Positions 31,918 through 54,405 of a stretch of DNA of 64,000 nt are shown here, piece by piece; the stretch's first letter is position 1, and each line of letters starts with the position of its first letter. The position numbers and the translations under genes were made by a program. The stretch is from NCBI GenBank assembly GCA_965214265.1, contig CBDCBK010000010.1, forward strand, positions 537,369-601,368, given 5' to 3'. The notes beneath the pieces were generated by a model. That model did no database searches. It worked only from the letters and a program-made list of their open reading frames with translations, and was not told where the DNA came from. This DNA is from Acidimicrobiia bacterium (lineage in GTDB: Bacteria > Actinomycetota > Acidimicrobiia > Spongiisociales > ZC4RG35).

Positions 31918-31959
31918 GGCCTGTAGGTAAGGACCGCGAGGGCGAGGAAGAGAGATACA

Positions 31960-32910: not shown

Positions 32911-32923
32911 GCAAGGAGGAACT

Positions 32924-34920: not shown

Positions 34921-35010
34921 GGCCAGCGCCGCGGAATCAGCGTTCGCGGTTGGGTGCCGCGTCGGGATTGACCATCCTGGTTTTTCCCTGCATGTGAGGT
35001 TGCCGGCCCG

Positions 35011-36147: not shown

Positions 36148-37937
36148 ATGAGAAAACTGAAATTAGCCATTGCCTTGATGGCTGTCTTGGCGTTGTTGGC
36201 TGCGGCCTGCGGCGGCGACGACGGCGCAGAGGATACGGCTGCTGCGGACGCGGCGGCTGCTCAGGCTGCTGCGGACGCGGCGGCTGCTCAGGCTGCTGCG
36301 GACACGGCTGAGGCTGCTGCTGCTGAGGCGGCTGCTGAGGCTGCTGCGGCGCAGGCCGAGTTGGAAACCGCGCAGGCCGAGTTGGAAGCTACCCGCGCTG
36401 CTGCTGCGGCCGGTGATGCGGACGCGCAGGCGATGTTGGAGGCTGCTGAGGCCGAGGCTGCCGCTCAAGCTGAGGCTGCTGCCATGGCTGAAGAGGCTGC
36501 CGAAGAGGCTGCCATGACAGCCGCAGACGCCCAGAAGGCACTGGCAGAGTCGATGATGGTGGATGCCCCCGGATCCGGGAACTCGAAGTGGCTATGGGTA
36601 TAGGTTTCTGTTGCGCCGACTTTGCCTATTGGCAGATTCCCTTGGAATTGGACTGGTATGACGAATTGGGTATAACCATCGTCCCCAATACGCCTACTTA
36701 TTGGTATCTCACCAATAGCACCGAGACCAATGCCAAGTTGCAGCGTCAAGAGCTTCACATGGCCAATGGCTGGGTGCCCTCACTGTTCGTAGCTCTGGAG
36801 ACCTTCGCTCAGGAGATTCCAGTGATTCACTTCGCGGATATCTTTATCGGCTATGCGGTCCTGGTATCGCCTGACAGCGATTCGAAGACTGCCCTGGAGT
36901 TCATGGAGGAAGGGATGTCCTTCTCCGAGGCGGCCACGGCGGCCGTGGAGCAGTTGGTTGGCGAGGATATCTACATCACGCCGGGTAGCACTACACAGGC
37001 CCAGTACGCGAACGCGTTCTTCGCCTACCTGCCCGAGTGGTGGGAGGATGTGCAGGAAGACATTCCCGTAATTGACGAGGAAGGCAACCCCTTGGTGTTG
37101 CTGGGCCGCGATGGCCAGCCACTCCTGGATGATGACGGCAACGTTCAGCCGATTCGCATTACGACCAACGACTGGCGCAATTACTCCACTCCGAAGTACG
37201 TCGAGGACCCCATTATCGTGGAGCTTTCGGCTGTTCCGGGCCGGATCGATTACGCCATGCCCTTCCAGGCTCCAACCCTGGTGCAGATGATTCGTAACGG
37301 CTGGGATCCGCTGATCAACTTCGCGATGATGTTCGAGCACGACGCGTTCTCCCAGCAGACGGGCATCGCCAGCTCCACCACAGGCGGCACCGGCCTGATT
37401 GCCAACCGCGAGTGGGTGGAGGCGAACAAGGACGCGGTCTACCGGATACTCTCCGTTGCCCACCGGACCTTCGCTTTCCTCGATGATCCCGAGACCCAGC
37501 GAATTGGGTGGGAGATTGAGGCCAATCTCATCAACGAGAAGCGCCTGCTGAGCATGGAGCCCGAGGACATCGGAGTCATATGGGAACAGATCGACCCCTC
37601 CTTTAACTGGGAGGACCAAGAGGCGCTTTGGGACTTGAGCCTGCCCAGCTACCACCCAGAGACGGTGTTCAGGAACCAGGTCGAGGAGCGTAAGGCCAAG
37701 GGAGAGTTGTCTGCGACCTATGACACGCAGGCAGGGCTCGAGAAGTTCTTGTTGGCCCAGGAGCTCTATTACGACATGAAGGGCATGCAGGAACGTTCCG
37801 ACGCTCTCTTCGCCACGGCTGAGGGATTGGATCTTTCCGATAGCCAGGCCGCTTTGGTGGCACAGGCCCGCCACTGGTACGACATCTATAACTTCTACGA
37901 CGCTGAGCGCTTCTTGGAGGCTGCCCTTATTGGGTAA
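36148..37937 (+). pseudogene. ABC substrate-binding lipoprotein, copy 2, disrupted by a 1-bp deletion (~36570) between linker and binding domain
   Basis: It is split into ORFs 36148..36603 and 36588..37937 in different frames. Alignment with copy 1 (ccccgaggtccgggaagccgaggttgctatgggt versus ccccggatccgggaactcgaagtggctatgggt) shows a single missing base. The 1790-bp length is not divisible by 3. Confidence 0.65.
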
Positions 37938-37977
37938 GCTTTCGGTAGCGATTGGCTAGTAGGTAAAAGAGAAGCTC

Positions 37978-38017
37978 CGAGCGCGGGGCAGGACGGGTTA
38001 TCGTCCTGCCCCGCGCT
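37978..38017 (+). terminator. GC-rich hairpin (copy-2 counterpart of the intra-operon attenuator)
   Basis: gcgcggggcaggacg-ggttat-cgtcctgccccgcgc. The stem is identical and the loop differs. Confidence 0.55.
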
Positions 38018-38062
38018 TCGGCCTGATAGGTAAGGACCGCGAGGGCGAGGAAGAGAGATACA

Positions 38063-39013
38063 GTGACCACCACAAGCACCGATGTTCTTGATGTGAGAGC
38101 GGCGGCGCACCGCGCTAGACGGCGAAGCAAGATTGCCTATAGCATCTATCTGGTCGTCGGGTTAATGCTGTTTTTGCTGATTTGGCAGTTGATCGCCTCG
38201 CCTTTTTCGCCCCTTTTCTATCTCATACCGCCGCCCATTGATGCCGTCAGGCACTTCGGGGAGAACCTGTTTTTCAGTCAGCGGATGTTGGAGCGGTATG
38301 TTCATGCTTGTCCGGATCTGTTGGACGAGTTGGAGTTGACGGGGGGAAGGATGTTCGATCTTCCCGATTACTGTTTTGGGTATATTCTGCATTTGGTGCG
38401 GACTACCCGCAATATCATGATCGCAGTTACGCTGGGGACGGTGGTTGGTTTGTCGGTGGGGCTGAGCAGTTTGGTTTTCCCGAAGATCGCGGATGTGGTG
38501 ACGCCGATTGCTGGTTTTTTTGGGACTACCCCGATTTTCATAGCGGCGCCTTTTTTCGTGATCTGGTTCGGGATCGAGTATCCCTTGATGACCACCGTCG
38601 GGGTGGTTGTTTTCTACACCACCCTTCTCATGTATTTCTTTAGCCGCCGGGCGGCGGAGAATATACCGGTGGGGATCATTGAGTCAGCCCTCACCCTGGG
38701 GGGAGACCGCCGTACTATTTTCCGGTGGGTGTATTTGCCGGGGACGATACCCGAGATCGCGGGAGGCTTTCGTATCGCGTTGGCCGGCGCCTGGGGACTG
38801 GGTACGCTGGTGGAGGTGCTGGGACCTCAGATGGGAGGAGGATTTCTTATTCGTATGTGGAGCTTTGCGATGGGCCTTTTGGAGGGGCCGGCCGCGGTGG
38901 TTTCACTGATTCTTTTCTTCGGTGTGTTGGCTGTGGTAGTCGACGGTATCTTGGTGCTGTTTATCCGTTTCGTCACCAAGTGGTCCGAGGCCGGTCGCCG
39001 GCTGGGTTTGTAG
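38063..39013 (+). CDS. ABC transporter permease (NitT/TauT), copy 2 (~97% aa identity to copy 1)
   Basis: Near-identical to 31960..32910 except for N-terminal residues. Confidence 0.85.
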   Translation: MTTTSTDVLDVRAAAHRARRRSKIAYSIYLVVGLMLFLLIWQLIASPFSPLFYLIPPPIDAVRHFGENLFFSQRMLERYVHACPDLLDELELTGGRMFDLPDYCFGYILHLVRTTRNIMIAVTLGTVVGLSVGLSSLVFPKIADVVTPIAGFFGTTPIFIAAPFFVIWFGIEYPLMTTVGVVVFYTTLLMYFFSRRAAENIPVGIIESALTLGGDRRTIFRWVYLPGTIPEIAGGFRIALAGAWGLGTLVEVLGPQMGGGFLIRMWSFAMGLLEGPAAVVSLILFFGVLAVVVDGILVLFIRFVTKWSEAGRRLGL

Positions 39014-39026
39014 GCAAGGAGGAACT

Positions 39027-39806
39027 ATGTCGTCAACTGTTGTGAGCTTTGAGAATCTGTGGTGTGTGTTCGAGCACCGATCCGGGCAATTGGTGCATGC
39101 CCTTGAGGATGTCAATTTCCATGTCGATCCCGGCGAGTTTGTGTGTGTCGTGGGGAGGTCTGGGCACGGTAAGACCACTCTGCTGAGGGTGCTGGCCGGG
39201 CTTCAGCCTCCTACCGCCGGTGAGGTGAAGCTGGGCGACACCCCGGTGACGGGGCCGGGTAGCGACCGGGCCATGGTTTTTCAGCAGGACACGGTGTTTC
39301 CTTGGTTGCATGTCCGCGAGAACGTTGAATTCGGTCTCAGGGCCAACAAGCTTCCCGAGGACGAGCGGAACGAGATCACCAATTACTGGTTGTCGGCGGT
39401 GGGACTGGAGGAGTTCGCTGACTCTTGGCCGCGGGAGCTTTCTGGGGGCATGAGAAAGCGGGTGGCTCTGGCGGCGGCGATGGCGGTGGGCTCGGATGTT
39501 GTGCTCATGGATGAGCCTTTTGGGTCTGTTGACTATTTCACGCGCCGTAATCTTCATGAGGTTCTTTTGAATTTGTGGTTTGAGACCAAGAAGACCATCT
39601 TTTTTGTCACCCATGACATTGAGGAGGCGCTGATTCTTGCTGACCGGGTGATCCTCTTGGCTGAGGGCAAGTTGGTGGACGACATCGCGGTTTCTCTCCC
39701 TCGTCCTCGTAACGAGGATGTCCGGGCCACCCCTGAGGCGGTGGGTGTGTTCAAGCTGATCTTGGCGCATCTGGGTATCACCGAGGAGGAGGCGACGAAG
39801 GTTTGA
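39027..39806 (+). CDS. ABC transporter ATP-binding protein (NitT/TauT), copy 2 (100% aa identity to copy 1)
   Basis: Identical 259-aa translation. Only a few synonymous nucleotide differences. Confidence 0.9.
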   Translation: MSSTVVSFENLWCVFEHRSGQLVHALEDVNFHVDPGEFVCVVGRSGHGKTTLLRVLAGLQPPTAGEVKLGDTPVTGPGSDRAMVFQQDTVFPWLHVRENVEFGLRANKLPEDERNEITNYWLSAVGLEEFADSWPRELSGGMRKRVALAAAMAVGSDVVLMDEPFGSVDYFTRRNLHEVLLNLWFETKKTIFFVTHDIEEALILADRVILLAEGKLVDDIAVSLPRPRNEDVRATPEAVGVFKLILAHLGITEEEATKV

Positions 39807-41023
39807 ACCAGCCTGCCCTCTTCCGAAGCCTTTATTGGATTGGATGGCTGATCTGGGTCGTCTTCCTGGCTCCTTGGTTGCTCATTCAACTGCCTGAAAG
39901 CCTTCCCTTCGTTTCCTGGACATATAGCGATGGTGTGATCAACGTCACGTGGTCGATCCTTGTTTCTTGGCTGGTTTTGTTGCTGGTCTGGCCGGTTGTG
40001 TTCCGCCCGAGTGGGGTCAAGAACCGCCTGGTCAAGATGGGACAGGGGATAGCGGCGGGGCCGCCGATGCTGTTGGCCGGTATGCGCCGCAGCCCGCTCT
40101 TCTTCGTCTCCTGGGTGGTGTTGCTGGCGGCGTGGCAACTGGGGTCTTATTTGGCGCCTCCGGGAGCCCTTGAGCACCCCCTGGTTCCCGGATGGGACTA
40201 CGTGTTCGGTGAGACCTTCTTCAGAATGTCCGGGGACTGGAGCGTCCGCGGGTTTGACCTTGAGTTTGTGGTCCTCGATGTCACGGGACTAGCGCCCCTT
40301 CCCATCTATGGCGGGGAGGCGACTTGGCCGGCCGTGTTCCTCGCCATCGCTTTCCACTCCGGCACGACCCTTTTCCGGCTGATGTGTGGCATGGTGGTCG
40401 GTATGACCCTCGGTCTCCTGACCGGTCTGGCCATTCCCTATTGGCCGCCGCTGCGCAAGTCCGCTTGGGCGCCCATGAACTTTCTGCGGATGATCCCCCT
40501 CCTGGCGGCGATTCCCTGGTTGCAGTTTGCCGTGGGCTCCACCCTCTTTGGTATCACCATCTATATTGCATTCGGGGTGTGGACGACGATGGTGGTGGCA
40601 ACTATGAACTCGGTGGCCAACGTGCCTGACCGGTACATCGAGAGCGCCCGTACCCTGGGCGCGTCCCGGCCGTGGACCTATTACAAGGTGATAGTGCCGG
40701 GGTCGATTCCCGAGTTGCGCACCGCCATGTTGCTCTCCATGGGAGGGAGCTGGTCGCTGGCCATTGCCGCCGAGTTCCTGGGTTTCCCCACCGGGCTGGG
40801 ATATATGGCCAACGTGGCGGTGCAGGAAACCAACACCGCCCGGCTGGTGATAGTGGCGTTCATTGTGGCTTTTTATTCTCTCACGACCTTCTACTTGCTC
40901 AACGAAGGATTCAAAAAGGCGGTTAGTTGGATGCCACAGCGCGCCACCGGGAAGACGGATATCAGCAGGGTGGCCGGGGCGGCCGGAGCGGGGGGCCGCG
41001 CGGAAACCCTAGAGGGCGGATAA
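39803..41023 (+). CDS. second ABC permease, copy 2 (~92% aa identity)
   Basis: Co-linear with 33700..34920. Confidence 0.8.
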   Translation: MNQPALFRSLYWIGWLIWVVFLAPWLLIQLPESLPFVSWTYSDGVINVTWSILVSWLVLLLVWPVVFRPSGVKNRLVKMGQGIAAGPPMLLAGMRRSPLFFVSWVVLLAAWQLGSYLAPPGALEHPLVPGWDYVFGETFFRMSGDWSVRGFDLEFVVLDVTGLAPLPIYGGEATWPAVFLAIAFHSGTTLFRLMCGMVVGMTLGLLTGLAIPYWPPLRKSAWAPMNFLRMIPLLAAIPWLQFAVGSTLFGITIYIAFGVWTTMVVATMNSVANVPDRYIESARTLGASRPWTYYKVIVPGSIPELRTAMLLSMGGSWSLAIAAEFLGFPTGLGYMANVAVQETNTARLVIVAFIVAFYSLTTFYLLNEGFKKAVSWMPQRATGKTDISRVAGAAGAGGRAETLEGG

Positions 41024-41113
41024 GGCCAGCGCCGCGGAATCAGCGTTCGCGGTTGGGTGCCGCGTCGGGATTGACCATCCTGGTTTTTCCCTGCATATGA
41101 AGCTGTCAACGCG

Positions 41114-42010
41114 GTGCTGACCGGCATCGTCTTCGGGTTTATCACGGCGGTGACGCTGGGGATCAACCGTCTGCTCACTGCAGTGGTGGCCCGGCGCTTC
41201 GGCGTGCTGCGCTCCGCTGCCACCACTCTGAGCCTGGCCCTCTTGGTGATGGTCATCTGGGCAATCCTCATCGACGTGCCGGTCGAAATGACCACTGACC
41301 AACTTGTTTTACTGGCCTTCTTGGGCTCCTGCGTCGGCGGGTCCTTTCTGGGCGGCTACACGGCCCTCCGACTCGGTCCGATCTCGGTGGTGACTCCGAT
41401 CGGCGCTCTGGGGGGCGCCATGACGGTGATCTACGCATTCTGGTTGCTGGGGGAAAGACCCGGCGCGGTGCAGTGGGCGGGAATACCGATCGCCGTACTG
41501 GGAGCGGTATTGGCATCCGTGGTGATCAAGCGCGGAGTCAAAATTCGACTGGTCACCTGGGGGCCGGCCTTCGCCATGATCGGCGTGTTTGTGGGATCGC
41601 TCTCCAACGCCGGCCTGAAGATCCCCATCAGGGATGGACTCGACTCCAACCTGACCGTCATCACCCAGCGGGTCTTCACGGTGGCCTTCGTCGCTCTGGT
41701 GTTGGTGATTGTCTCCCGGGTGACAGAACGGCGTCGACGAACGGGAGATGGTCCCCCGTATCCGGTGAGGATTACCTGGAGGACAGGATGGCTGCTGGGC
41801 GTGGTGGGAGTGATCGACGGCGTCTCCTTTATATCATTCGGATACGGTTTGGCGTATGCTCCGGCCTGGCTGATCGGGATCATCTCCCAAAGCGGACGGG
41901 TGATAGCCGTGATCGGCGGGGTGATATTCTTCAAAGAACGACTCCACCACCTGCAGTGGGCAGGCATAGCCCTGATAACGGTCGGTGTGGCCATGTCCGT
42001 CGTCGGCTAG
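41114..42010 (+). CDS. EamA/DMT transporter, paralog 2
   Basis: GTG start overlapped by the uORF ATGAAGCTGTCAACGCGGTGCTGA (41097..41120). Confidence 0.8.
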   Translation: MLTGIVFGFITAVTLGINRLLTAVVARRFGVLRSAATTLSLALLVMVIWAILIDVPVEMTTDQLVLLAFLGSCVGGSFLGGYTALRLGPISVVTPIGALGGAMTVIYAFWLLGERPGAVQWAGIPIAVLGAVLASVVIKRGVKIRLVTWGPAFAMIGVFVGSLSNAGLKIPIRDGLDSNLTVITQRVFTVAFVALVLVIVSRVTERRRRTGDGPPYPVRITWRTGWLLGVVGVIDGVSFISFGYGLAYAPAWLIGIISQSGRVIAVIGGVIFFKERLHHLQWAGIALITVGVAMSVVG

Positions 42011-42246: not shown

Positions 42247-43152
42247 GTGTTGACCGGCATCATCTTCGGGTTCATCACCGCGGTGACGCTGGGGATCAAC
42301 AGCCTGCTCACTGCTGTGGTGGTACGGCGTTTCGGCGTGCTGCGCTCTGTCTCCGTTACTGTGACTCTGGCTTGCTTCTTGATGATGGCCTGGGCGGCGC
42401 TGATCGGTGTGCGAGTCGAGATGAATGCCGACCACCTGATCCTGCTGGTCCTGTTGGGCTCCTGTGTCGGCGGGTCCTTTCTGTGCGGTTACATGGCTCT
42501 CCGGGTCGGTCCGATCTCGGTGGTGAGTCCGATCGGCGCTCTGGGGGGCGCCATGACGGTGATCTACGCATTCTGGTTGCTGGGGGAAAGACCCGGCGCG
42601 GTGCAGTGGGCGGGGATACCGATCGCCGTTCTGGGAGCGGTGTTGGCATCCGTGGTGATCAAGCGGGGGACCAAGATTCGACTGGTCACTTTGGGGCCGG
42701 TCTTTGCCTTGACCGGCGTGCTGGTGGGATCGATCTCCAACGCCGGCCTGAAGATCCCCATAAGGGATGGGGTGGATTCCAACGTGACCGTCATCACCCA
42801 ACGGGTCTTCACGGTGGCTGTCATCCTCTTGGTGTTTGTGATCTTCTCCAGGGTGACAGAACAACGACGACGAAGGGGAGATCCCCGGTACGAGGGGAGC
42901 CACCCGGTGAAGATCACCTGGCGGACGGGATGGCTGCTGGGTTTGGTGGGACTGATCGACGGTGCCTCCTTCATATCCTTCGGATATGCTCTGGCGCATG
43001 CACCTGTCTGGCTGATCTCGATTATCTCCCAAACCGGACGGGTTATAGCCGTGATCGGCGGGGTGATGTTCTTCAACGAACGACTCCACAGCCTGCAGTG
43101 GACAGGCATAGCTCTGATATGCGTTGGGGTGGTGATGTCCATCGTCGGTTAG
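42247..43152 (+). CDS. EamA/DMT transporter, paralog 3
   Basis: ~75-80% identical to paralogs 1 and 2. uORF GTGAAGCTGTCAACTAGGTGTTGA at 42230..42253. Confidence 0.8.
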   Translation: MLTGIIFGFITAVTLGINSLLTAVVVRRFGVLRSVSVTVTLACFLMMAWAALIGVRVEMNADHLILLVLLGSCVGGSFLCGYMALRVGPISVVSPIGALGGAMTVIYAFWLLGERPGAVQWAGIPIAVLGAVLASVVIKRGTKIRLVTLGPVFALTGVLVGSISNAGLKIPIRDGVDSNVTVITQRVFTVAVILLVFVIFSRVTEQRRRRGDPRYEGSHPVKITWRTGWLLGLVGLIDGASFISFGYALAHAPVWLISIISQTGRVIAVIGGVMFFNERLHSLQWTGIALICVGVVMSIVG

Positions 43153-43183
43153 CACTGCCGCTAGCCGTTGGTTATGAAGAGCT

Positions 43184-43300
43184 GTGAAAGAAATCGTGGG
43201 TGGAGGATTGATTCTTGTCCCACGGGGGTTCACATTGAAGATGTACCAAACACCGAGACGGTCTGTCTTGGCATCGTTCGGACTTCGTCAAGGGATCAAA
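43184..43300. repeat. conserved ~110-nt noncoding element, copy A (3' of EamA-3, 3' of truncated hydrolase)
   Basis: TGAAAgaAAtCG..GG.GGaTTGATTCT.GTC....GGGGGTTCAcA.TGAaGa....AAACACCGAGAcGGTCTG recurs at 47026..47120 and 50005..50130. No consistent reading frame. Confidence 0.6.
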
Positions 43301-43496: not shown

Positions 43497-43901
43497 TCAG
43501 TTCTCGGGGAAGGTGTACTGGAATACCCCGCCGGTGCGGATCATCTCGGCGGCGATGGCGCCCACCAGTTCGGGATGGCGGGCGGCGGCCGAGATGATCA
43601 CCTGTCCCCCCATGCTTTGGCCCACCAGCACGGGCCGATTCAGTTCCAGTTGGCGGATGAGTGCGGCCACGTCATCGCCGTGTTGGGCCATGGTGTAGAT
43701 CTCATCGGGCTTGTCGCTTTCCCCGTGGCCGCGCAGATCGACCGCCACGCACCGGTGATTGGGGGAGAAGTACTTCTCCTGGAGGCCGAATCCTTCCCGA
43801 CTGCCGAAGCCCCCGTGGATGAAAATAATGGCCGGATCGCCGGAGCCTAATTCGTGGTACGCCATGCGGACGCCGTCGGGGTTAGTAATCCATTCAGTCA
43901 T
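43497..43901 (-). pseudogene. alpha/beta-hydrolase paralog with large in-frame internal deletion (N-terminal 116 aa fused to last 18 aa)
   Basis: MTEWITNPDGVRMAYHELGSGDPAIIFIHGGFG...GQSMGGQVIISAAARHPELVGAIA|AEMIRTGGVFQYTFPEN. The catalytic Asp/His region is missing. The breakpoint lies at the short repeat GAIA/DAIAAE. Confidence 0.75.
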
Positions 43902-44206
43902 GGGACCCAGCCTAATTTGTCCTATTTCTGAGTTGTAGAGACACTCGGGTCAATACTGGGTTAGTGGGGTTCGGCGGTGCATCCTGTTGCTTGATCACCA
44001 CGTCGAGCAGAAAGGAAGCCCCGCCGTGGGTAATGATGATGCCTTGTATCGCTTTAGGTTGGGGGTATTTGCTCTAGCAGAAGAATTGGGAATCGTGCGT
44101 GTGTTGCATAACCGGATGATGGGAATCCATCATTCTACGTTTTTTATCGGTGGGCTTGGGTATATTTGGGAGGGTCAAGGTCGGCTGATTTGCTGGCTCA
44201 GCCGCT

Positions 44207-45811
44207 TTGGTCGACAGCCGTCGGCCCGACCAGCAAGCGAACGGAAGGAAAGCGCAAACGAGGAAATTTATATCAGCTATTTCTCTGGTGGCTATCTTGG
44301 CGTTGTTGCCTGCGGCCTGCGGCGACGGCGCGGCGGATACGGCCGCGGCGGACGCGGCTGCTGCTCAGGACGAAGCCGCTGAGGCTGCTGCCACGGAAGC
44401 CGACGAGGCCCAGAAGGCTCTGGAAGGGTCGATGGTGGAGGCCCCCGACATTCGGGAAGCCGAGGTTGCGATGGGTTTTAACGCCTGTTGTGCCGATCTG
44501 GCTTTTTGGCAGATTCCCGTCGATTTGGGCTGGTGGGATGATTTGAATATCACCATCGTTCCCAATTCGCCCACCTATTACTATTTCGCCGCCGGCGCCG
44601 AGGCCATTGCCTGGTTGCGGCGCGGTGAAGGCGCCGTGGCCCCCGGGTGGGTGCCGGGACTGTTCGGGGCGTTGGAGACCTTTGCTCAGGAAGTCCCGCC
44701 GATTTTCTTCGCGGACATCTATGTCGGCTATGCGGTCCTGGTTGCGCCGGACAGCCCCTCCAAGACCGTGCTCGAGTTCGTGGAGGAAGGGATGTCTTTC
44801 CCGGAAGCCGCCAAGGCGGCCGTCCAGCAGTTGGTAGGGGCGGATATTTACATTTCGCCCAGCCCCCAGCAGGCTCAGTACATGGATGCGTTCTTCGCTT
44901 ATCTGCCCGAGTGGTGGGAGGCTTATCAGGAGGACATTGCCGCCTTGGACGAGGATGGCAACCCCTTGGTGTTGTTGGGCCGCGACGGCGAGCCACTTCT
45001 GGACGAGGACGGCAACGTTCAGCCGATTCGGATCACGACCAACGACTGGCGTAACTACGCCAACCCGCAGTACGTCCATGACCCCACGATCATGGAGCTT
45101 TCGGCTGTTCCGGGCCGGATCGAATACGCCATGCCTTATGGCGCTCCGACCCTGGTGCAGATGATGCGCAACGGTTGGGATCCGCTGATCAACTTCGGGA
45201 TGATGATCGACAACGATCCGTTCTCCCAGCAGACGGCGATCGCCAACTCCACTGTCGGCGGCATCGGCCTGCTGGCGAACCGCGAATGGGTTAATAACAA
45301 TAAGGACCTGGCCTACAGGGTGCTCTCTGCCGCCTATCGCACCTTTGAGTTCCTCGATGATCCCGAGACCCAGTACCAGGGGTGGGAGATCGAGGCCAAT
45401 CTCATCAACGAGAAGCGCCAGATGAGCATGGAGCCCGAGGACATCGGGACCATCTGGTCGACCATCGATCCCTCCTTTAACTGGGAGGAGCAGGCGGCGC
45501 TGTGGGACTCGAACCTCCCGAGCTACCACCCCGAGATAGTGTTCGCCACTCAGATCGAGAAGCTGAAGGCCAAGGGGGTGTTGTCCGAGGACTATGACAC
45601 GCAGGCCGGGCTGAAAGAGTTCTTGTTGGCCCAGGACCTCTACTATGAGATGAAGGAATTCGAGATGCGCTCCGACGCACTCTTCGAGAGGGCTTCGGGA
45701 AGGGATCTTTCCCCGGCCCAGGCTGCTCTAATCGCCCAAGCGCAGTTCCACTATGACATCTATAACTTCTATGACGCTCTCCGCTTCTTGGAGGCTGCCC
45801 TCATCGGGTAG
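44207..45811 (+). CDS. ABC substrate-binding lipoprotein, copy 3 (diverged; ATG replaced, probable TTG start; shorter linker)
   Basis: ...RKFISAISLVAILALLPAACGDG lipobox. The binding domain is ~75-80% identical to copies 1 and 2. The copy-1 ATG position reads ACG here. An in-frame TTG lies at 44207. Confidence 0.6.
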   Translation: MVDSRRPDQQANGRKAQTRKFISAISLVAILALLPAACGDGAADTAAADAAAAQDEAAEAAATEADEAQKALEGSMVEAPDIREAEVAMGFNACCADLAFWQIPVDLGWWDDLNITIVPNSPTYYYFAAGAEAIAWLRRGEGAVAPGWVPGLFGALETFAQEVPPIFFADIYVGYAVLVAPDSPSKTVLEFVEEGMSFPEAAKAAVQQLVGADIYISPSPQQAQYMDAFFAYLPEWWEAYQEDIAALDEDGNPLVLLGRDGEPLLDEDGNVQPIRITTNDWRNYANPQYVHDPTIMELSAVPGRIEYAMPYGAPTLVQMMRNGWDPLINFGMMIDNDPFSQQTAIANSTVGGIGLLANREWVNNNKDLAYRVLSAAYRTFEFLDDPETQYQGWEIEANLINEKRQMSMEPEDIGTIWSTIDPSFNWEEQAALWDSNLPSYHPEIVFATQIEKLKAKGVLSEDYDTQAGLKEFLLAQDLYYEMKEFEMRSDALFERASGRDLSPAQAALIAQAQFHYDIYNFYDALRFLEAALIG

Positions 45812-46099: not shown

Positions 46100-46996
46100 G
46101 TGCTGACCGGCGTCATCTTCGGGTTTATAACCGCGGTGACGCTAGGGATCAACAGTCTGCTCACTGCCGTAGTGGCGCGGCGCTTCGGCGTTCTGCGCTC
46201 TGCTGCCGCCACGCTGACGCTGGCTCTCTTGGTGATGGTCGCCTGGGCAATCCTCATCGACGTGCCGCTCGAGATGACCACCGACCACCTGATCCTCTTG
46301 ACCATTCTGGGCACCTGCGTCGGCGCCTCCTTTCTGGGCTCCTATACGGCCCTCCGACTGGGCCCGATCTCCGTGGTAACACCGATCGGCTCTCTGGGGA
46401 CCGCGATGACTGTGGTCTACTCCTTTTGGCTGCTGGGGGAAAGACCCGGCGCCTTGCAGTGGGCGGGAATACCGGTCGCCGTGCTGGGAGCAGTACTGGT
46501 ATCGCTTGTAATCAAACGCGGGACCAGGGTTCGACTGGTCACCTGGGGGCCGGTCTTCGCGTTGATCGGCGTATTCGTAGGATCGATCTCCAACGCCGGC
46601 CTGAAGATCCCCATCAGGGACGGAGTCGACTCCAACTTGACCGTAATCACCCAACGGGTCTTCACAGTGGCCTTCGTCCTGTTGGCGTTGGTGGTTTTCT
46701 CCCGGCTGGGATTTCGACGTCGGCGAGAGGGAGATGACCCTCAATCCCCGATGAGGATCACCTGGAAGACAGGATGGCTTTTGGGCCTGGTGGGACTGAT
46801 CGACGGCGTCTCTTTCATATCATTCGGATACGGATTGGCCTACGCACCGGCCTGGTTGATCGCGATCATCTCCCAAAGCGGAAAAGTGATAGCCGTAGTC
46901 GGCGGGGTGATCTTCTTCAAGGAACGACTCCACCGACTTCAGTGGGCCGGGGTGGGGTTGATAATGGTCGGCGTGATGATGTCCCTCGTCGGCTAA
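46100..46996 (+). CDS. EamA/DMT transporter, paralog 4
   Basis: uORF ATGAAGCTGTCCACGGGGTGCTGA (46083..46106) overlaps the GTG start. Confidence 0.8.
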   Translation: MLTGVIFGFITAVTLGINSLLTAVVARRFGVLRSAAATLTLALLVMVAWAILIDVPLEMTTDHLILLTILGTCVGASFLGSYTALRLGPISVVTPIGSLGTAMTVVYSFWLLGERPGALQWAGIPVAVLGAVLVSLVIKRGTRVRLVTWGPVFALIGVFVGSISNAGLKIPIRDGVDSNLTVITQRVFTVAFVLLALVVFSRLGFRRRREGDDPQSPMRITWKTGWLLGLVGLIDGVSFISFGYGLAYAPAWLIAIISQSGKVIAVVGGVIFFKERLHRLQWAGVGLIMVGVMMSLVG

Positions 46997-47025
46997 TACC
47001 GCCCTTTCCATCCGCGGTGGGAGGT

Positions 47026-47120
47026 CGTGAAAGGAACCGCATTGGGAGGGTTGATTCTGTCTCATGGAGGGTTCATAGTGATACGAGTCAAACACCGCAG
47101 CGGTCTGCTGTGGACCCGGA
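47026..47120. repeat. conserved ~110-nt noncoding element, copy B
   Basis: See 43184..43300. Confidence 0.55.
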
Positions 47121-47201: not shown

Positions 47202-48041
47202 TCAGTTCCCGGGAAAGGTGTATTGGAATACTCCACCGGTACGGATCATCTCGGCGGCGATGGCGTCGGCGTGTTCGATGAATCGGCGCAGCATGGCGTT
47301 GATCTGGTCCGGCACTACCTGGAGGGCTCCATGGCCAGCGCCGACCGGTTTGCCGATCACCACTTGGGGGCACAGTTCGCGGAGCAGGTCCAGGTCGATG
47401 CGCGGCTGACCGCAGTCGACATATAGATAAGGGCACTTGATGCTTGCCAGTATCGGCGCGGGATCGAAGGCGCTCAACCCGTGCCAGTCGCTGAGGATCA
47501 CGTGGTCGGGAACTTGGGCCAGCCGCTCGGCTGCTTTCTTGGCGCGGGTCGGGTCGTCGGTGGGCAGGTGGGAGGCGCTGAGAAACCCGACCAGCGTGTC
47601 CCGGAAGGGTAGGTCCTTTTGCATGAGGTGATCGAAGGGTCCGTGATGGTACGCGGTCCACCCGGGGAGGTTGCTGGGAGAGTCCAGGCTGGCGATCGCT
47701 CCCACCAGGTCGGGATGGCGGGCGGCGGCGGAGATGATCACCTGTCCTCCCATGCTCTGGCCGACCAGCACCGGCCGGTCCAGTTCCAGTTGGCGGATGA
47801 GTTCGGCCACGTCATCGCCGTGTTGTTCCATGGTGTAGAGCTGATCGGGTTTGTCGCTATCCCCGTGGCCGCGCAGATCGACCGCGATGCAGCGGTGATT
47901 TGGCGAGAAGTACTCCTCTTGGAGGCCGAATCCTTCCCGATTGCCGAAGCCGCCGTGGATAAGGATGATGGCCGGGTCGCCGGCACCCAGCTCGTGGTAG
48001 GCGATGCGGACGCCGTCGGGGGTGGTGATCCATTCGGTCAT
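47202..48041 (-). CDS. alpha/beta-fold hydrolase, tandem paralog 1
   Basis: IHGGFGNREGF (oxyanion region), GQSMGG (GxSxG nucleophile elbow) and GAGHG (catalytic His region). 279 aa. Confidence 0.8.
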   Translation of the reverse strand: MTEWITTPDGVRIAYHELGAGDPAIILIHGGFGNREGFGLQEEYFSPNHRCIAVDLRGHGDSDKPDQLYTMEQHGDDVAELIRQLELDRPVLVGQSMGGQVIISAAARHPDLVGAIASLDSPSNLPGWTAYHHGPFDHLMQKDLPFRDTLVGFLSASHLPTDDPTRAKKAAERLAQVPDHVILSDWHGLSAFDPAPILASIKCPYLYVDCGQPRIDLDLLRELCPQVVIGKPVGAGHGALQVVPDQINAMLRRFIEHADAIAAEMIRTGGVFQYTFPGN

Positions 48042-48122
48042 GGCACTCAGTTTAGTTGTCGGGTGTCACCACCGGTCCTGGTACAGGATGACTGTCCGGA
48101 CCGGTTTGAGGAGTGACGGCCC

Positions 48123-48965
48123 CTATAAATTCTCGGGGAATGTGTATTGGAAGACGCCGCCGGTGCGGATCATCTCGGCGGCGATGGCGTCGGCGTGTTC
48201 GATGAACCGCCGAAGCATGGCGTTGATCTGGTCCGGCACTACCCGGAGGGCCCCATGTCCGGCGCCGACCGGTTTGCCGACCACCACTTGGGGGCACAGC
48301 TCGCGGAGCAAGTCCAGATCGACGCGCGGCTGTCCGCAGTCGACGTACAGATAAGGGCACTTCACCCCAGCCAGTATCGGCGCGGGATCAAAGGCCATCA
48401 TCCCCTGCCAGCCGTTGAGGATCATACGGTCGTCAAGCCGGGCCAGCCGCGCCGCTGTGTTCTTGGCGCGGGTCGGGTCGTCGGTGGGCAGATGGGCGGC
48501 GCTGAGGAAGAGTTCCAGCGCCTTCCGGAAGTCTTGGTCCTTCCGCATGAGGTGATCAAAGGGTCCGTGATGGTAGGCGTGCCATCCGGGGAGGTTGCTG
48601 GGCGAGTCGAGGCTGGCGATGGCCCCCACCAGTTCGGGGTGGCGAGCGGCGGCCGAGATGATCACCTGTCCACCCATGCTTTGTCCCACGAGGACGGGCC
48701 GGTCCAGTTCCAGTTGGCGGATGAGTTCGGCCACGTCATCGCCGTGTTGTTCCATGGTGTAGAGCTCATCGGGCTTGTCGCTTTCGCCGTGGCCGCGCAG
48801 ATCGACCGCGATGCAGCGGTGATTTGGCGAGAAGTACTCCTCCTGGAGGCCGAAGCCTCCCCGATCGCCGAAGCCGCCGTGGATAAGGATGATGGCCGGA
48901 TCGCCTGCACCCAGCTCGTGATATGCAATGCGGACGCCGTCGGAGGTGGTGATCGATTCAGTCAT
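48123..48965 (-). CDS. alpha/beta-fold hydrolase, tandem paralog 2
   Basis: Same motifs. ~80% identical to paralog 1. Confidence 0.8.
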   Translation of the reverse strand: MTESITTSDGVRIAYHELGAGDPAIILIHGGFGDRGGFGLQEEYFSPNHRCIAVDLRGHGESDKPDELYTMEQHGDDVAELIRQLELDRPVLVGQSMGGQVIISAAARHPELVGAIASLDSPSNLPGWHAYHHGPFDHLMRKDQDFRKALELFLSAAHLPTDDPTRAKNTAARLARLDDRMILNGWQGMMAFDPAPILAGVKCPYLYVDCGQPRVDLDLLRELCPQVVVGKPVGAGHGALRVVPDQINAMLRRFIEHADAIAAEMIRTGGVFQYTFPENL

Positions 48966-49095
48966 GTCACTCAGCTTAGGTTGTCAGCCCGGCAGAGGAG
49001 GGCGAAAGGGCAACAGGTATTTTGGTGGTCCAGTCGGAGTCAAATGCCCGCCCGGTGTTCGCCGGTCCCAAGTGAACGGTGTTCGCCGCGGGTCC

Positions 49096-49938
49096 TTATG
49101 TGGAGGGGAAGGTGTATTGGAATACCCCGCCGGTGCGGATCATCTCGGCGGCGATGGCGTCGGCGTGTTCGATGAATCGTCGTAGCATGGCGTTGACCTG
49201 GTCCGGCACGTCCTGGAGGGCCCGGTGTCCGGCGCCAACCGTTTTGCCGATCACCACCTGGGGGCACATCTCGCGGAGCAGATCCAGGTCGAGATCCGGC
49301 TGGCCGCAGTCGATGTAGAGGTAAGGACACTTCACCCCGCTCAGCGTGGGTGTTGGGTCGTAATCGGCCTTTCCCAGCCAAGTGTTGAGGATCAATTTGT
49401 CGGGTACTTCGGCGAGCCGCGCGGCCATGGTGCCCACCCGGGAGGGGTCGTCGGTAGGCAGATAGGCGGCTTTGAGGAACGTGTAGAGCGTCTCGCGGAT
49501 AGGGGGGCCGTCCTTGCTCATCAAGGGTTGGTAGGGACCGTGAAAGCGCTGGTGCCATCCGGGGATGTTGCTGGGCGAGTCCAGGCTGACGATCCCCCCC
49601 ACCAGTTCGGGGTGGCGGGCGGCGGCGGCGATCACCACCTGTCCGCCCATGCTCTGGCCCACCAGCACGGGCCGATTCAGCCCCAATTGGCGAATGAGCT
49701 CTGCTATGTCATCGCCGTGTTTGTCCATGAAGTAAGGCTCATCGGGCTTGTCGCTGTCGCCGTGGCCGCGCAGGTCGACCGACACGCACCGGTGATTGGG
49801 GGAGAAGTACTCCTCCTGGAAGCCGAATCCTCCCCGCTTGCCGTAAGCGCCGTGGATGAAGATGATGCCCGGGTCGCCGGCGCCCACCTCGTGGTAGGCG
49901 ATGCGCACCCCGTCGGAGGTGGTGATCCATTCAGTCAT
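49096..49938 (-). CDS. alpha/beta-fold hydrolase, tandem paralog 3
   Basis: Same motifs. ~65-70% identical to paralogs 1 and 2. Confidence 0.8.
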   Translation of the reverse strand: MTEWITTSDGVRIAYHEVGAGDPGIIFIHGAYGKRGGFGFQEEYFSPNHRCVSVDLRGHGDSDKPDEPYFMDKHGDDIAELIRQLGLNRPVLVGQSMGGQVVIAAAARHPELVGGIVSLDSPSNIPGWHQRFHGPYQPLMSKDGPPIRETLYTFLKAAYLPTDDPSRVGTMAARLAEVPDKLILNTWLGKADYDPTPTLSGVKCPYLYIDCGQPDLDLDLLREMCPQVVIGKTVGAGHRALQDVPDQVNAMLRRFIEHADAIAAEMIRTGGVFQYTFPST

Positions 49939-50004
49939 GTCACCTGAGCTTAGGGTATCCTGTGGCGGCGCGGTACTGACACTTGCAGTCGGTTCTATCA
50001 GAAG

Positions 50005-50130
50005 TTGTGAAACAATCCGTTGTTGGGGGGTTGATTCTGTCGTGGGGAGAGTCCATGCTTATATGCGCCGAACACCGAGATGGTTCGCCCAGGCGTCGAT
50101 TGGACCGCGTCGAGGGATCAGATGTCCTTA
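50005..50130. repeat. conserved ~110-nt noncoding element, copy C, with adjacent EamA 3'-end relic (gcagtcggtt)
   Basis: See 43184..43300. Its 3' half, g.cgtcgattggaccgcgtcgagggatcaga, matches copy A. Confidence 0.55.
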
Positions 50131-50285
50131 CCCAATAAGCCCTGTTGTGGCTGGACGGAGTTGTTCGACCATGGCGAGGTGGTGGTGGGGGAGGGCCCGG
50201 AAGGGACGCCAAATTTTCGCGACTTTTGGGTGTTGATCAGCGACTGCCGGTCGCCACTCCGAGTGGCGTTCAGCGCCGCCGGGTT

Positions 50286-51125
50286 TTATGTGGGTGGGAA
50301 GGTGTATTGGAACACTCCGCCGGTGCGGACCATTTCGGCGGCGATGCTATCGGCGTGTTGGATGAAGCGGTAGAGCATGGCGTTGATCTGGTCCGGCACG
50401 TCCTTGGTGGCCTGATGACCGGCGCCCACCGTTTTGCCGATCACCACCTGGGGGCAGAGCTCGCGGAGCAGATCGAAGTCGAGACCGGGTTGGCCGCAGT
50501 CGATGTAGAGATAGGGGCACTTCACTCCGGCCAACACCGGCGCCGGATCGAAGGCGCTCATTCCCTGCCAGCCGTTCACGATCACATGGCCGGGAACCTC
50601 AGCCAGCCACTCTGGCATTTCCCCAACCCGCGATGGGTCGTCGGTGGGCAGATAGGCAGCGCTGAGGAAGGTTTGTAGCGCCTCCCGGAAGGGGCCGTCC
50701 TTGGTCATCAGGTGGTCGAATGGACCATGAAAGCGCCGGTGCCATCCGGGGATGTTGCTGGGCGAGTCGAGGCTGGCGATTGCCCCTACCAGTTCGGGAT
50801 GGCGGGCGGCAGTGGAGATGACCACCTGTCCGCCCATGCTGTGACCAACCAGGATGGGCCGCCGTATTCCCAGATGGCGGAGCCATTCGGCAACCTCATC
50901 GGCGTATTTGTCCATGGTGTACAGTTCATCGGGCTTTTCGCTGTCGCCGTGGCCACGCAGGTCGATAGCCAGACACCGGTGATTGGGCGAGAAGTATTCC
51001 TCCTGGAATGTGAAACCAGTCCGGTTGCCGAAGCCGCCGTGGATGAAGACGATGGGCGGATCCCCGGTGCCCACCTGGTGGTAGGCGAGGCGGACGCCGT
51101 CGGAGGTAGTGAACCATTCAGTCAT
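50286..51125 (-). CDS. alpha/beta-fold hydrolase, tandem paralog 4
   Basis: GHSMGG variant of the nucleophile elbow. Same architecture. Confidence 0.8.
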   Translation of the reverse strand: MTEWFTTSDGVRLAYHQVGTGDPPIVFIHGGFGNRTGFTFQEEYFSPNHRCLAIDLRGHGDSEKPDELYTMDKYADEVAEWLRHLGIRRPILVGHSMGGQVVISTAARHPELVGAIASLDSPSNIPGWHRRFHGPFDHLMTKDGPFREALQTFLSAAYLPTDDPSRVGEMPEWLAEVPGHVIVNGWQGMSAFDPAPVLAGVKCPYLYIDCGQPGLDFDLLRELCPQVVIGKTVGAGHQATKDVPDQINAMLYRFIQHADSIAAEMVRTGGVFQYTFPPT

Positions 51126-51246
51126 GTCGCCGAGCTTAGGGTGTCAGCCTGGGATAGGGAGGTTGATCGGCAACAGCCAATTGGTGCTCGAGTCGGCTAG
51201 AAGCATTGGACTGCCGGATCGTCGGGACAGCGTTCGGCCCGGGTTC

Positions 51247-52086
51247 TTATGTGGGTGGGAAGGTGTATTGGAATACTCCGCCGGTGCGGATCATTTCGGC
51301 GGCGATGGCGTCGGCGTGTTGGATGAATCGGCGGAGCATGGCGTTGATCTGATCAGGCACATCCCTGGTGGCCGCGTGACCGGAGCCCACCGTTTTGCCG
51401 ATCACCACCTGGGGGCACAACCCTCGGAGTAGATCGAGGTCCAGATACGGCTGGCCGCAGTCGATGTAGAGATAGGGGCATTTCACCTGGCCCAGCACCG
51501 GCGCCGGATCGAAGGAGCTCAATGCCCACCACTGTCTGACGATTACATGATCGGGAAATGCGGCCAGCCGCTCCCCGATCCCGGCGACCCGCGACGGGTC
51601 GTCGGTGGGCAGATAGGCGGCGCCGAGGAAGGTGCGCGCCGCTTCCCGGAAGGGACCGTCTCGGGTCATCAGGTGGTCGTAAGAACTACTAAATCGTTTC
51701 TGCCATCCGGGGATGTTGCTGGGCGAGTCGATGCTGGCGACCGCCCCAACCAGTTCGGGATGACGGGCAGCCACGGAGATAACCACCTGCCCGCCCATGC
51801 TGTGACCCACCAGGATGGGCCGCCGGAGACCAAGTTGGTGGATCAGCTCCGCCACGTCGTCGGCGTGTTTGGCCATCGAGTACACCTCGTCGGGCTTGTC
51901 GGTGTCGCCATTGCCGCGCAGGTCGACAGCCAAGCACCGGTGATGGGGCGAGAAGTACTCCTCCTGGAGAGCGGAACCTCCCCGATTGCCGTAAATGCCG
52001 TGGACGAAAACAATGGGCGGATCGCCAGCGCCAACCTGGTGGTAGGCGAGACGGATGCCGTCGCGGGTGGTGATCCATTCAGTCAT
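51247..52086 (-). CDS. alpha/beta-fold hydrolase, tandem paralog 5
   Basis: GHSMGG. It lies immediately downstream of asd on the same strand. Confidence 0.8.
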   Translation of the reverse strand: MTEWITTRDGIRLAYHQVGAGDPPIVFVHGIYGNRGGSALQEEYFSPHHRCLAVDLRGNGDTDKPDEVYSMAKHADDVAELIHQLGLRRPILVGHSMGGQVVISVAARHPELVGAVASIDSPSNIPGWQKRFSSSYDHLMTRDGPFREAARTFLGAAYLPTDDPSRVAGIGERLAAFPDHVIVRQWWALSSFDPAPVLGQVKCPYLYIDCGQPYLDLDLLRGLCPQVVIGKTVGSGHAATRDVPDQINAMLRRFIQHADAIAAEMIRTGGVFQYTFPPT

Positions 52087-52144: not shown

Positions 52145-53158
52145 TCAGAGGCTAAGTCGCTCAGCCAGTTGAACAGCGTTGAGCGCCGCGCCCTTGCGGA
52201 GGTTGTCGCCCACCGCCCACAAGTTGATCCCTCCGGGCATTCCTACCGTCTCCCGCACCCGGCCCACCAGGGTCCGGTCCCCCCCGGCGCTGTCCAGGGG
52301 AGTGGGCGGGATGTCCTCCCAGACCTCCACCCCGGGGGCGGTGGCCAGGACATCCAGCGCCTCGCTCCGGCCCAGCGGACGGTCGAACCACACCGAAGCG
52401 GCCAGGCCGTGGCCGACCATCACCGGCACCCTCACACAGGTAGGCTCCACGGCCAGCTCCGGGAGTTCGAGAATCTTGCGGGACTCGTTCACCAGCTTCC
52501 ACTCCTCGTCGGTATAGCCCTGCCCAGTCTCCGAGCCGGCCATGGGCAGCACATTGAAGCCGATGGGACGGCTGTAGACCTCGCCGCCCGGGTCGGTCCA
52601 TCTCCCTTGCGCCAAGCCGGATAGATCACCCCGGAAGTGATCTATCTGGTGGGAAAGCTCGGTCATCCCCTTCTGTCCCGAGCCTGAGACCGACTGATAG
52701 GAGGTGGTAACCATCGAGCGGAGCCCTGCGGCCCGGTGGAGAGGGGCGACTGCCATCATCAGCACCATGGTGGTGCAGTTGGGGTTGGCGACTATTCCTT
52801 GATGTGATCCCAGGGCATGGTCGTTCACATCCGCCACGACCAGCGGAACTGTGGGGTCCATCCGGAAACAGGACGAGTTGTCGATCACCACCGCCCCTGC
52901 GGCCACGAAGTGGGGGGCATAAGCCCGGGACCGGGAGGCCCCCGCCGAAAAGATCGCAATCTCGATTCCCTCCGGATCGGCCTCCTCCAGATCTTCCACC
53001 TCAACCTTGCCCCAGGTGGTGGAGATCTTCTGTCCGGCCGAGCGCGCCGAGGCCATAACCCGCAGTCGGCCGATGGGAAAATTCCGGTCGGCCAGGATAT
53101 CGAGCGCTGTCCGGCCCACCGCTCCGGTGGCGCCCACCAGGGCCAGGTTGACGCTCAT
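52145..53158 (-). CDS. asd: aspartate-semialdehyde dehydrogenase
   Basis: [11 protein letters not shown] (NADP site) and the active-site Cys in [12 protein letters not shown]. Confidence 0.9.
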
Positions 53159-54405
53159 GCGCCCCGTTCCTCCCGGATCAGGGGGGGTCGGAACTCGCGG
53201 TGAAGCGCCTGCACGGCCTTCCGCATCTGGGACTCGTCCACTACACAGGAGATTCTGATGGTGGAGGTGGAGATCATCTCGATGTTGATCCCGGCCTCGC
53301 CCAATGTTCGAAACACGCGGGCCGCAACACCCGGCTCGGTTTTCATGCCCGCCCCTATCAGCGACACCTTGGCGATGTCCTGGCGGATCTCCACCCCTGA
53401 TGCTCTCACCTTCCGTCCGATGAGCCTAACCACCTCCTCCGCCCATTCTATGGAGCTTTTAGGGATGGTGAAGCTGATGTCGGACAGGCCCTCCCGAGAG
53501 ATGTTCTGCACGATCATGTCAACGTTCACGCTCGCCTCCGCTAGCGGTTCGAAGACAGATGCCGCCACGCCCGGTTGGTCGGGAACTTCCCGCAGGGTGA
53601 CCTTCGCCTCCGAGGCGTCGTGGGCTATTCCGCTGACTATGGCTTGTTCCATTCGCTCCATCTCGGTGGCCTTTCTTATCCAGGTGCCGGGCGAGTCGGT
53701 AAAAGAAGATCGTACGTGGATGGGGACGCCGTATCGACGACCAACCTCTACCGCCCGGGGAACGAGCACCCCCGCCCCCCCGGCGGCCAGCTCCATCATT
53801 ACCTCATAGGAGACCTCATCCAGCTTTTTTGCTTCGGCGACTATCCGGGGATCGGCGGTCATCACCCCCGGCACATCCGTGTATATCTCGGCCACGTCTC
53901 CACCCAGCGCGGCAGCCAGCGCCACCGCACTGGTGTCGGAGCCCCCCCTGCCCAGGGTGGTGATCTCCTTGGATCGCGGGCTGACCCCTTGGAACCCGGC
54001 CACGATCACCACCCTCCCCTCGGCGAGATTATCGGTTACCCGAGCGCCCGTTATCCCCTGGATTTTGGCGGCGCCATGGGTGTCGTCGGTAAGAATCCCG
54101 GCCTGGCTGCCGGTGAGACTCACCGCTTCCACGCCATAGGCGGCGATGGCCATGGCGGTCAGGGCAGTGGAGATGCGCTCTCCGGCGGTGAGCAGCATAT
54201 CCATCTCCCGGGCCGGCGGGTTGGGGTTCACTTCTTGGGCGAGGACCGCCAGGTCATCGGTGGTGCTACCCATGGCGGAGACCACCACCACCACCTGGGC
54301 GCCGGTTCGTCGGGCGCTCACCACCCGGGCTGCCACGCTCCGGATGCGGTCGGGAGTTGCGAGAGAAGACCCGCCGAATTTTTGTACGATCCGCGTCATA
54401 TCCAA
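53155..54405 (-). CDS. lysC: aspartate kinase (monofunctional, two C-terminal ACT domains)
   Basis: [25 protein letters not shown] and ACT repeats. The stop overlaps the asd start (ATGA). Confidence 0.9.

Follow-up and report, generated by a model that had tools for sequence, protein, structure and literature searches.

Tandem alpha/beta-hydrolase paralogs beside an amplified transporter cassette in a lineage of Acidimicrobiia

Why would a bacterium keep five diverged copies of one hydrolase gene in a row, next to transporter genes that are themselves multiplied? The question is posed by a stretch of 64,000 nucleotides (hereafter the window) from the Acidimicrobiia bacterium assembly GCA_965214265.1 (contig CBDCBK010000010.1, positions 537,369 to 601,368 of the forward strand; Spongiisociales in GTDB). 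The open reading frame (ORF) listing of the window holds five intact alpha/beta-hydrolase ORFs, arranged head to tail on the minus strand downstream of asd, the gene for aspartate-semialdehyde dehydrogenase. Acidimicrobiia are core members of the sponge microbiome and their nutrition is poorly known. On balance, it is probable that the five paralogs are specialised hydrolases, with Asp120 as the predicted catalytic acid, for related small solutes that would be imported by the neighbouring ATP-binding cassette (ABC) system and are probably host-derived. The grounds for this reading, the points that weigh against it and the alternatives are set out below.

Divergence, age and authenticity of the array

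The first gene of the array, c1, lies at 51247-52086 (279 amino acids; Pfam Abhydrolase_1 at E = 9e-23) and is followed by c2 at 50286-51125 (279 amino acids), c3 at 49096-49938 (280 amino acids), c4 at 48123-48965 (280 amino acids) and c5, the last, at 47202-48041 (279 amino acids), with spacers of 121, 347, 130 and 81 bp in that order. All five match both Pfam Abhydrolase_1 and Abhydrolase_6, with E values of about 1e-17 to 1e-24 and 65-86 bits against gathering cut-offs of about 26. ORF listing and Pfam together bear out the first-pass annotation of this DNA, made from the letters alone, which had described five same-strand tandem hydrolase paralogs downstream of asd. Its figure of 65-80% pairwise protein identity was wrong, the measured range being 68.6-87.5% with c4 and c5 as the closest pair (87%). 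The nucleophile elbow G(Q/H)SMGG that it had reported is common to c1-c5, and an alignment of the five confirms the conserved gene ends, MTE(W/S)(I/F)TT at the start and TGGVFQYTFP at the end. Two further motifs ascribed to all five copies are looser than stated: IHGGFGNR is exact in c2 and c5 only (VHGIYGNR in c1, IHGAYGKR in c3, IHGGFGDR in c4), the oxyanion stretch of the array reading (V/I)HG(I/G/A)(Y/F)G(N/K/D)R, and GAGHG is exact in c4 and c5 only, with GSGHA, GAGHQ and GAGHR in the other copies and G(A/S)GH(A/Q/R/G) as the form that covers all five.

All five paralogs are under purifying selection and keep their catalytic residues. The ratio of non-synonymous to synonymous substitution (dN/dS, by the NG86 or Nei-Gojobori method) is 0.20-0.35 between the paralogs of the window and 0.07-0.24 between orthologues, those of c2 giving 0.07-0.16. 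At the protein level the copies of the window are least alike at residues 141-200 (identity 0.53-0.60). Synonymous identity stays even from one end of the gene to the other, which is why gene conversion was rejected as the cause of the conserved ends and protein-level constraint is taken as their explanation. The divergence is not spread evenly over the protein: 22 positions are conserved inside every one of seven orthologue clades yet vary from clade to clade, and the cap, 80 residues long, holds 13 of them (odds ratio 4.1; p = 0.002 by Fisher's test). The clade-specific positions of the core include 31, right after the oxyanion motif His29-Gly30, and 238, right after the catalytic His237, with 214 and 241 near in sequence. 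In the cap, dN/dS is 0.29-0.93 between paralogs versus 0.06-0.34 between orthologues, and the cap stands apart from the core in single pairs as well (0.68 versus 0.07 for c4-c5, 0.93 versus 0.18 for c1-c4). Such a pattern would be expected from remodelling of the pocket after duplication, followed by conservation, and indicates functional specialisation, not dosage. The substrate-range expansion put forward in the first-pass annotation is thus supported as far as computation reaches, the divergence pattern being the predicted one both in its approximately four-fold enrichment in the cap and in the dN/dS of the cap.

A scan of one genome per species in GTDB, with hydrolase copies counted by tblastn, gave 44 related loci, and tandem arrays of two to seven copies were found in 35 of them; eight of the other nine hold a separate single or 'solo' paralog. 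All 44 loci come from metagenome-assembled genomes (MAGs) labelled Acidimicrobiia, Ca. Spongiisociaceae, Ca. Spongiisocius or 'bacterium', and many of these MAGs carry isolate prefixes (RHO, APA, SB06xx, CO36xxx, Plut, OM1) that we take to denote sponge or coral bins. Phylogeny of the five copies against their orthologues, the comparison by which the first-pass annotation had suggested that the array be judged, was carried out as a neighbour-joining tree of 133 hydrolase copies and three outgroups. Each copy groups with its own orthologues according to array position: the first copy of every array belongs to one clade, and c2, c3, c4, c5 and the solo copy each have an orthologue clade of their own. 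Because copies cluster by array position across genomes, at least three paralogs are older than the split between these MAGs, and the clade of the window has expanded to five to seven.

These data bear directly on the suspicion that the array is a recent dosage amplification, or an artefact of repeat collapse or expansion, without functional differentiation. Tandem repeats of this length (about 0.95 kb) are easily misassembled, and copy number does vary among close relatives, with five intact copies and one deleted copy in the window and six copies in locus L001. The copies differ by 13-31% in protein, however, with synonymous divergence (dS) of 0.35-0.79; each has orthologues in up to 10 other MAGs; the same order recurs in separate assemblies and in chromosome-level records; and all copies retain the catalytic residues and the signature of purifying selection. 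Two separate assemblies, ERZ25068966 (a 742-kb contig at 11x) and ERZ26694896, contain a protein identical to c1 with c2 and c3 after it, and c1 orthologues in other MAGs are 89-97% identical. Since the c1-c2-c3 order is found in separate assemblies and arrays occur in 35 of the 44 loci, the array is not an assembly artefact; nor is it a recent amplification, and the suspicion as a whole is highly improbable. Copy number is nevertheless still changing among relatives: L001, whose c1 is 97% identical to that of the window, has an extra copy and an insertion sequence (IS) transposase of the rve type between c3 and c4.

A sixth hydrolase copy, overlooked in the first-pass annotation and recovered by tblastn, lies at 43497-43901 on the minus strand as a 134-residue ORF in which residues 1-117 are joined in frame to the last 17 residues. 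Its N-terminal part (residues 1-118) is 87% identical to c4 and c5, and the deletion, 435 nt long and in frame, lies between two GCCATCGCC direct repeats. The copy is probably a pseudogene because the deletion takes out D120, the cap, D209 and His237. At the same position an intact copy is present in L003, L004 and L006, and there is no copy in L001.

Several smaller observations belong beside the array. A non-coding repeat of about 90 nt (core GTGAAA...GGTTGATTCT...AACACCG) occurs at 47010-47110, 49990-50090 and 43173-43273, that is, downstream of c5, in the long spacer between c2 and c3, and again downstream of the deleted copy. It is probably left over from the edge of a duplication unit, and no convincing conserved RNA structure was found in it. 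The remnant of an IS transposase N-terminus (rve/HTH) lies at 43987-44382 on the plus strand, between the deleted hydrolase and the third lipoprotein gene, and the intact IS is that of L001 (13147-14169), within the hydrolase array of that MAG. Among the inserts in or beside the arrays of other MAGs no conserved extra enzyme was seen and none matched between loci; the one that was scanned is an IS transposase, and others resemble transposase or restriction-modification genes by their N-termini. The solo paralog clade (L034-L042) is 65-68% identical to c1, and about 30 kb separate it from the array in six genomes; the solo copy of L042 (9995-10843) comes after hydantoinase A/B genes, a GFO/IDH/MocA oxidoreductase gene and an HNH gene. 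The context of a 41%-identical homologue (P0117) was considered as a clue and set aside, its neighbours, a glutamine-synthetase-like gene and an MFS gene, being unrelated.

Family placement, fold and catalytic residues

The c1-c5 proteins, each of some 31 kDa and lacking a signal peptide, are cytoplasmic serine hydrolases of the alpha/beta fold, and they stand well apart from their relatives. In a cluster search over 1.84 billion representatives the tight family amounts to one 50%-identity cluster plus fragments, among 138 clusters with E below 1e-30, and the next relatives are 44-46% identical; in a search of 5.8 billion proteins identity drops from at least 61% straight to at most 44%. No curated NCBIfam model reaches its cut-off for any of the five. 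The best scores, 60-81 bits against cut-offs of 209-430, go to models for haloalkane dehalogenase, PcaD, MenH, the intracellular polyhydroxyalkanoate depolymerase and the AcoC hydrolase domain. In a PDB sequence search only the N-terminal half finds matches (E about 1e-19), the best solved structures being at most 26% identical, and the last 100 residues alone find none. The first-pass annotation had recognised no characterised sub-family, and neither the equivalog scores, all far under their cut-offs, nor the PDB matches point to one; in the searchable literature no description of this hydrolase family was found. Closeness to a well-characterised housekeeping esterase, which that annotation had named among the findings that would overturn its proposal, is not seen either, since MenH (55-63 bits versus 209), BioH (30-39 versus 207), RutD (30-61 versus 238) and MetX (18-21 versus 296-500) all score far below cut-off and were rejected. 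Two catabolic candidates were rejected likewise: the 3-oxoadipate enol-lactonase PcaD, for which TIGR02427 gives 59-65 bits versus 256 and the window yielded no pca genes, and the C-C bond hydrolases, with HsaD at 45-52 bits versus 400, BphD at 27 or less versus 462 and no dioxygenase genes nearby. The PDB match 4lxg, of the C-C hydrolase type, spans only residues 6-171.

An AlphaFold 2 model of c1 (mean predicted local distance difference test, pLDDT, 94.8; predicted template modelling score, pTM, 0.93) shows the strands in canonical order: the nucleophile elbow follows beta5 and the histidine beta8, a helical cap spans residues 121-200 or so, and at the C-terminus a long helix carries the tail. 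Foldseek places this model next to the Pseudomonas fluorescens aryl esterase, the Thermogutta esterase, chloroperoxidase F, a feruloyl esterase and an enol-lactonase, with template modelling (TM) scores of 0.76-0.80 at 17-25% identity. As modelled, then, the fold is the canonical one of small-molecule esterases or lactonases.

The nucleophile S96 in the G-(Q/H)-S-M-G-G elbow, the oxyanion motif H29-G30 and the catalytic H237 are invariant, and S96, H237 and D120 are invariant in c1-c5 and in 57 family members. Among 123 distant relatives S96 is conserved in 98%, H237 in 100% and D120 in 91% (with Glu in a further 5%), compared with 67% for D216 and 9% for D209. An hhalign comparison with DhaA (query sequence identical to PDB 4e46_A) gives 34% identity over residues 8-130 and places S96 on the nucleophile D106, D120 on E130, presumably the post-beta6 catalytic acid of DhaA, and W128 on W141. 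Because of both the conservation in distant relatives and this alignment, D120, which comes immediately after strand beta6, is the most likely catalytic acid, and S96-H237-D120 the most likely triad. Family-specific features include the DSPSN-x-PGW loop and a YxDCGQP motif. Positions 31 and 238 are small or polar and paralog-specific in the array proteins, where relatives have Trp and Phe, and the C-terminal tail of 25 residues, ending in TGGVF(Q/R)Y(T/N)FP, compares with a median of 9 residues in relatives.

An acid after beta6 is also what the cofactor-free dioxygenase QDO has (triad S95/D120/H244), and the S-M-G-G elbow is common to the perhydrolase and aryl-esterase group. It could therefore be argued that the proteins are perhydrolases like the non-haem haloperoxidases, or HOD/QDO/AqdC-type cofactor-free dioxygenases with N-heteroaromatic substrates, possibly working alongside a molybdoenzyme of the xanthine dehydrogenase (XDH) / CO-dehydrogenase family. 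Such an enzyme is encoded at 26220-27683 and 27500-29929 on the plus strand (a FAD plus 2Fe-2S subunit and a molybdenum cofactor, MoCo, subunit), directly upstream of the first lipoprotein gene of the transporter cassettes described below and on the same strand, and it has that place in L009 and L013 as well. The synteny is confined to these two, though, the XDH genes not lying beside the cassette in L010, L020, L023, L025 and L029, and no other gene for heteroaromatic degradation was seen. Identity to dioxygenases is 13-16%, against 21-26% for esterases, and perhydrolysis is usually a side activity of esterases. Oxidative or perhydrolytic chemistry is accordingly an unlikely account of the array.

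Transporter cassettes, asd and the surrounding genes

The first-pass annotation had placed amplified transporters next to the array, and the window does hold two ABC cassettes, three lipoprotein genes and four EamA genes there, all on the plus strand. The first cassette (30042-35916; Pfam BPD_transp_1, ABC_tran and EamA) consists of a lipoprotein gene (30042-31832), a permease gene (31960-32910), an ATPase gene (32924-33703), a second permease gene (33700-34920) and an EamA gene (35011-35916). The second (36148-42010) is a 6.1-kb direct repeat of the first, with a lipoprotein gene (36148-36603/36588-37937), permease genes (38063-39013 and 39803-41023) on either side of the ATPase gene (39027-39806) and an EamA gene (41114-42010). 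A third EamA copy (42247-43152; Pfam EamA, E = 5.5e-24), a third gene for the orphan lipoprotein (44207-45811) and a fourth EamA gene of the drug/metabolite transporter (DMT) family (46100-46996; Pfam EamA, E = 1e-24) follow, the last of these being convergent with c5. Identity between the second and the first cassette is 77-100%, with identical ATPases (100%), permeases at 89-96% and EamA proteins at 90%; the four EamA copies are 76-90% and the three lipoproteins 75-82% identical. The parts expected to touch the substrate (the five plus one hydrolases at 69-87%, the EamA proteins and the lipoproteins) are thus multiplied and diverged, and the ATPases are identical.

By their nearest NCBIfam models the ABC genes are NitT/TauT-like: the SaoA model gives the ATPase 222 bits and the TauB model 212 bits, and the permeases are nearest to SaoP, TauC and SsuC, all under the equivalog cut-offs. 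In the sponge-associated, Acidimicrobiia-related UBA5794, genes for 'taurine' transport are enriched (PMC12008989); KEGG-style labels on NitT/TauT cassettes like those of the window might contribute to such 'taurine' calls. The lipoproteins, of 530-600 residues, have a lipobox, a low-complexity linker rich in Ala, Glu and Asp (an Ala/Glu-rich one in the third copy, the presumed substrate-binding protein) and a conserved domain of about 450 residues with much Trp and Tyr. A frameshift near 36590 splits the second lipoprotein gene into a 151-residue ORF for the signal plus linker and a 449-residue ORF for the domain, either as a pseudogene or through a sequencing error. Of 173 homologues found, the 120 listed are at least 74% identical, two having an SLH anchor in place of the lipobox; those of them that are named are hypothetical proteins from Acidimicrobiia, Actinomycetia or unclassified 'bacterium' MAGs. 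In related loci the lipoprotein gene adjoins ABC permease genes, and about 25 loci have the EamA-ABC-lipoprotein cassette in convergent orientation to the hydrolase array.

Taken together, this suggests how the locus may work. Related small solutes, probably host-derived, would be taken up by the neighbouring ABC importer, the paralogous surface lipoproteins serving as alternative binding proteins for one shared translocator. The hydrolase paralogs would then cleave ester or lactone bonds in these solutes (amide bonds are less likely), and the co-amplified EamA permeases would move substrate or product. A more far-reaching version can be put forward tentatively: array, EamA genes and lipoprotein/ABC genes may form one catabolic module of sponge and coral symbionts in which three substrate-contacting components have co-diversified on host esters or lactones, the lipoprotein representing a new substrate-binding class and the hydrolases a new Ser-His-Asp(beta6) esterase sub-family with a conserved C-terminal tail.

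Several points weigh against the view of the paralogs as specialised hydrolases for imported solutes. As to transport, the array and the cassette are convergent, not co-transcribed, and their sole link is the neighbourhood. We infer the role of the lipoprotein as a binding protein from gene position alone: it has no detectable similarity to known binding-protein families (NMT1, SsuA and TauA included), no match to it was found in Pfam, NCBIfam or PDB up to E = 10, and its AlphaFold 2 model, from a shallow alignment, is of low confidence (pLDDT 52). The lipoprotein may for its part be a new binding-protein family, and more novel a component than the hydrolases. As to the chemistry, the structural neighbours of c1 form a flat list that also includes perhydrolases, C-C hydrolases and cofactor-free dioxygenases and does not pin down the reaction, and D209, a rival for the catalytic acid, is invariant in the tight family at the canonical post-beta7 position, where it may have a family-specific role. 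As to age, dS between the paralogs (0.35-0.79) is not above that between orthologues (up to 0.82), and some gene conversion or saturation of dS is possible.

The genes on the other side of the array offer a different partner. The asd gene (52145-53158, minus strand; Pfam Semialdhyde_dh and Semialdhyde_dhC) ends 58 bp upstream of c1, and an aspartokinase gene (53155-54405, minus strand) lies upstream of it and overlaps its start, AA_kinase and ACT domains being recorded for the identical gene in L046. The hydrolases might on this account be co-transcribed with asd and serve the aspartate-family pathway, in a step like that of homoserine O-acyltransferase or an esterase, or in the recycling of homoserine lactone. 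Beyond the low scores of the MetX models given above, the distribution of the genes speaks against such a role. No more than 14 loci have the ask-asd pair next to the array, and there an interval of 2-4 kb often separates asd from the first hydrolase copy, as in L002-L005 and others (the gap in L002 holds only unannotated ORFs, on both strands). In about 20 of the loci with arrays, ask-asd does not occur within 10 kb. EamA and ABC genes accompany the array more widely than asd does, in loci without ask-asd too. The adjacency of asd is synteny in part of the lineage and no defining link, and a role in aspartate-family metabolism is improbable.

A scan for promoters and terminators gave sites no commoner than in shuffled sequence, and Rfam over the window returned only a tRNA-Pro(CGG) at 21931-22007 on the minus strand. 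The selenocysteine incorporation genes selA and selB lie at 14476-17627 on the plus strand. A protein of 1219 residues encoded at 7260-10919 on the minus strand carries an SLH domain along with nine RCC1 repeats; as a eukaryote-like repeat protein held at the cell surface it fits a host-associated lifestyle. Proteins with eukaryote-like repeats are a mark of many other sponge symbionts, and sponge Acidimicrobiia have been described as being without them (PMC8163846).

Significance and comparison with known systems

A lineage-restricted locus in which an enzyme, a DMT permease and a surface lipoprotein are all multiplied and diverged is a concrete candidate for the use of host or holobiont metabolites, and the paralogs form a natural series for studying how the cap domain controls specificity in small alpha/beta-fold esterases. 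Should the substrate be an ordinary one, such as short-chain esters, the array would amount to routine paralog expansion.

One close structural comparison is with the aryl esterases and perhydrolases, of which PFE (1va4) and chloroperoxidase F (1a8s) are among the best Foldseek matches (TM 0.80) and whose S-M-G-G elbow is present in c1-c5. To these and to small carboxylesterases such as those of Thermogutta (4uhh) and EaEST (5h3h) the array proteins are only 21-26% identical. In the aryl esterases and perhydrolases the acid follows beta7, whereas in the array proteins it most likely follows beta6, and the array proteins differ from all of these esterases in their 25-residue C-terminal tail, in the small or polar, paralog-specific residues after HG and His, and in their arrangement in multi-paralog arrays. 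To the N-acyl homoserine lactone (AHL) lactonases Est816 (5egn) and AidH (4g5x) there is no family-level sequence match, and the UilS model scores 18.5 bits versus 400; AHLs cross membranes by diffusion and would need no ABC importer. Haloalkane dehalogenases of subfamily II (HLD-II; DhaA, LinB) resemble the array proteins in the 123 N-terminal residues aligned above, in the position of the nucleophile, in the post-beta6 acid and in the IP(G/T)W entry to the cap, and haloalkane dehalogenase is the top NCBIfam match for some copies (PRK03592, 67-77 bits versus 241). Membership of HLD-II was rejected: the nucleophile is Ser, not Asp, and the halide-binding N41 and W107 are replaced by I/G/A31 and M97. 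The C-terminal half of the array proteins is unrelated to HLD-II in sequence.

On the transport side the window's ATPases and permeases are nearest to the NitT/TauT importers TauABC, SsuABC and SaoABC, below cut-offs, from which the cassette differs in having two permease genes, an orphan lipoprotein in the position of the binding protein and an appended EamA gene. Neither the fold nor the catalytic machinery is new, and paralog arrays are well known to occur beside transporters. The novelty lies in a sub-family that is uncharacterised and specific to a symbiont lineage, together with the conserved module in which it is found.

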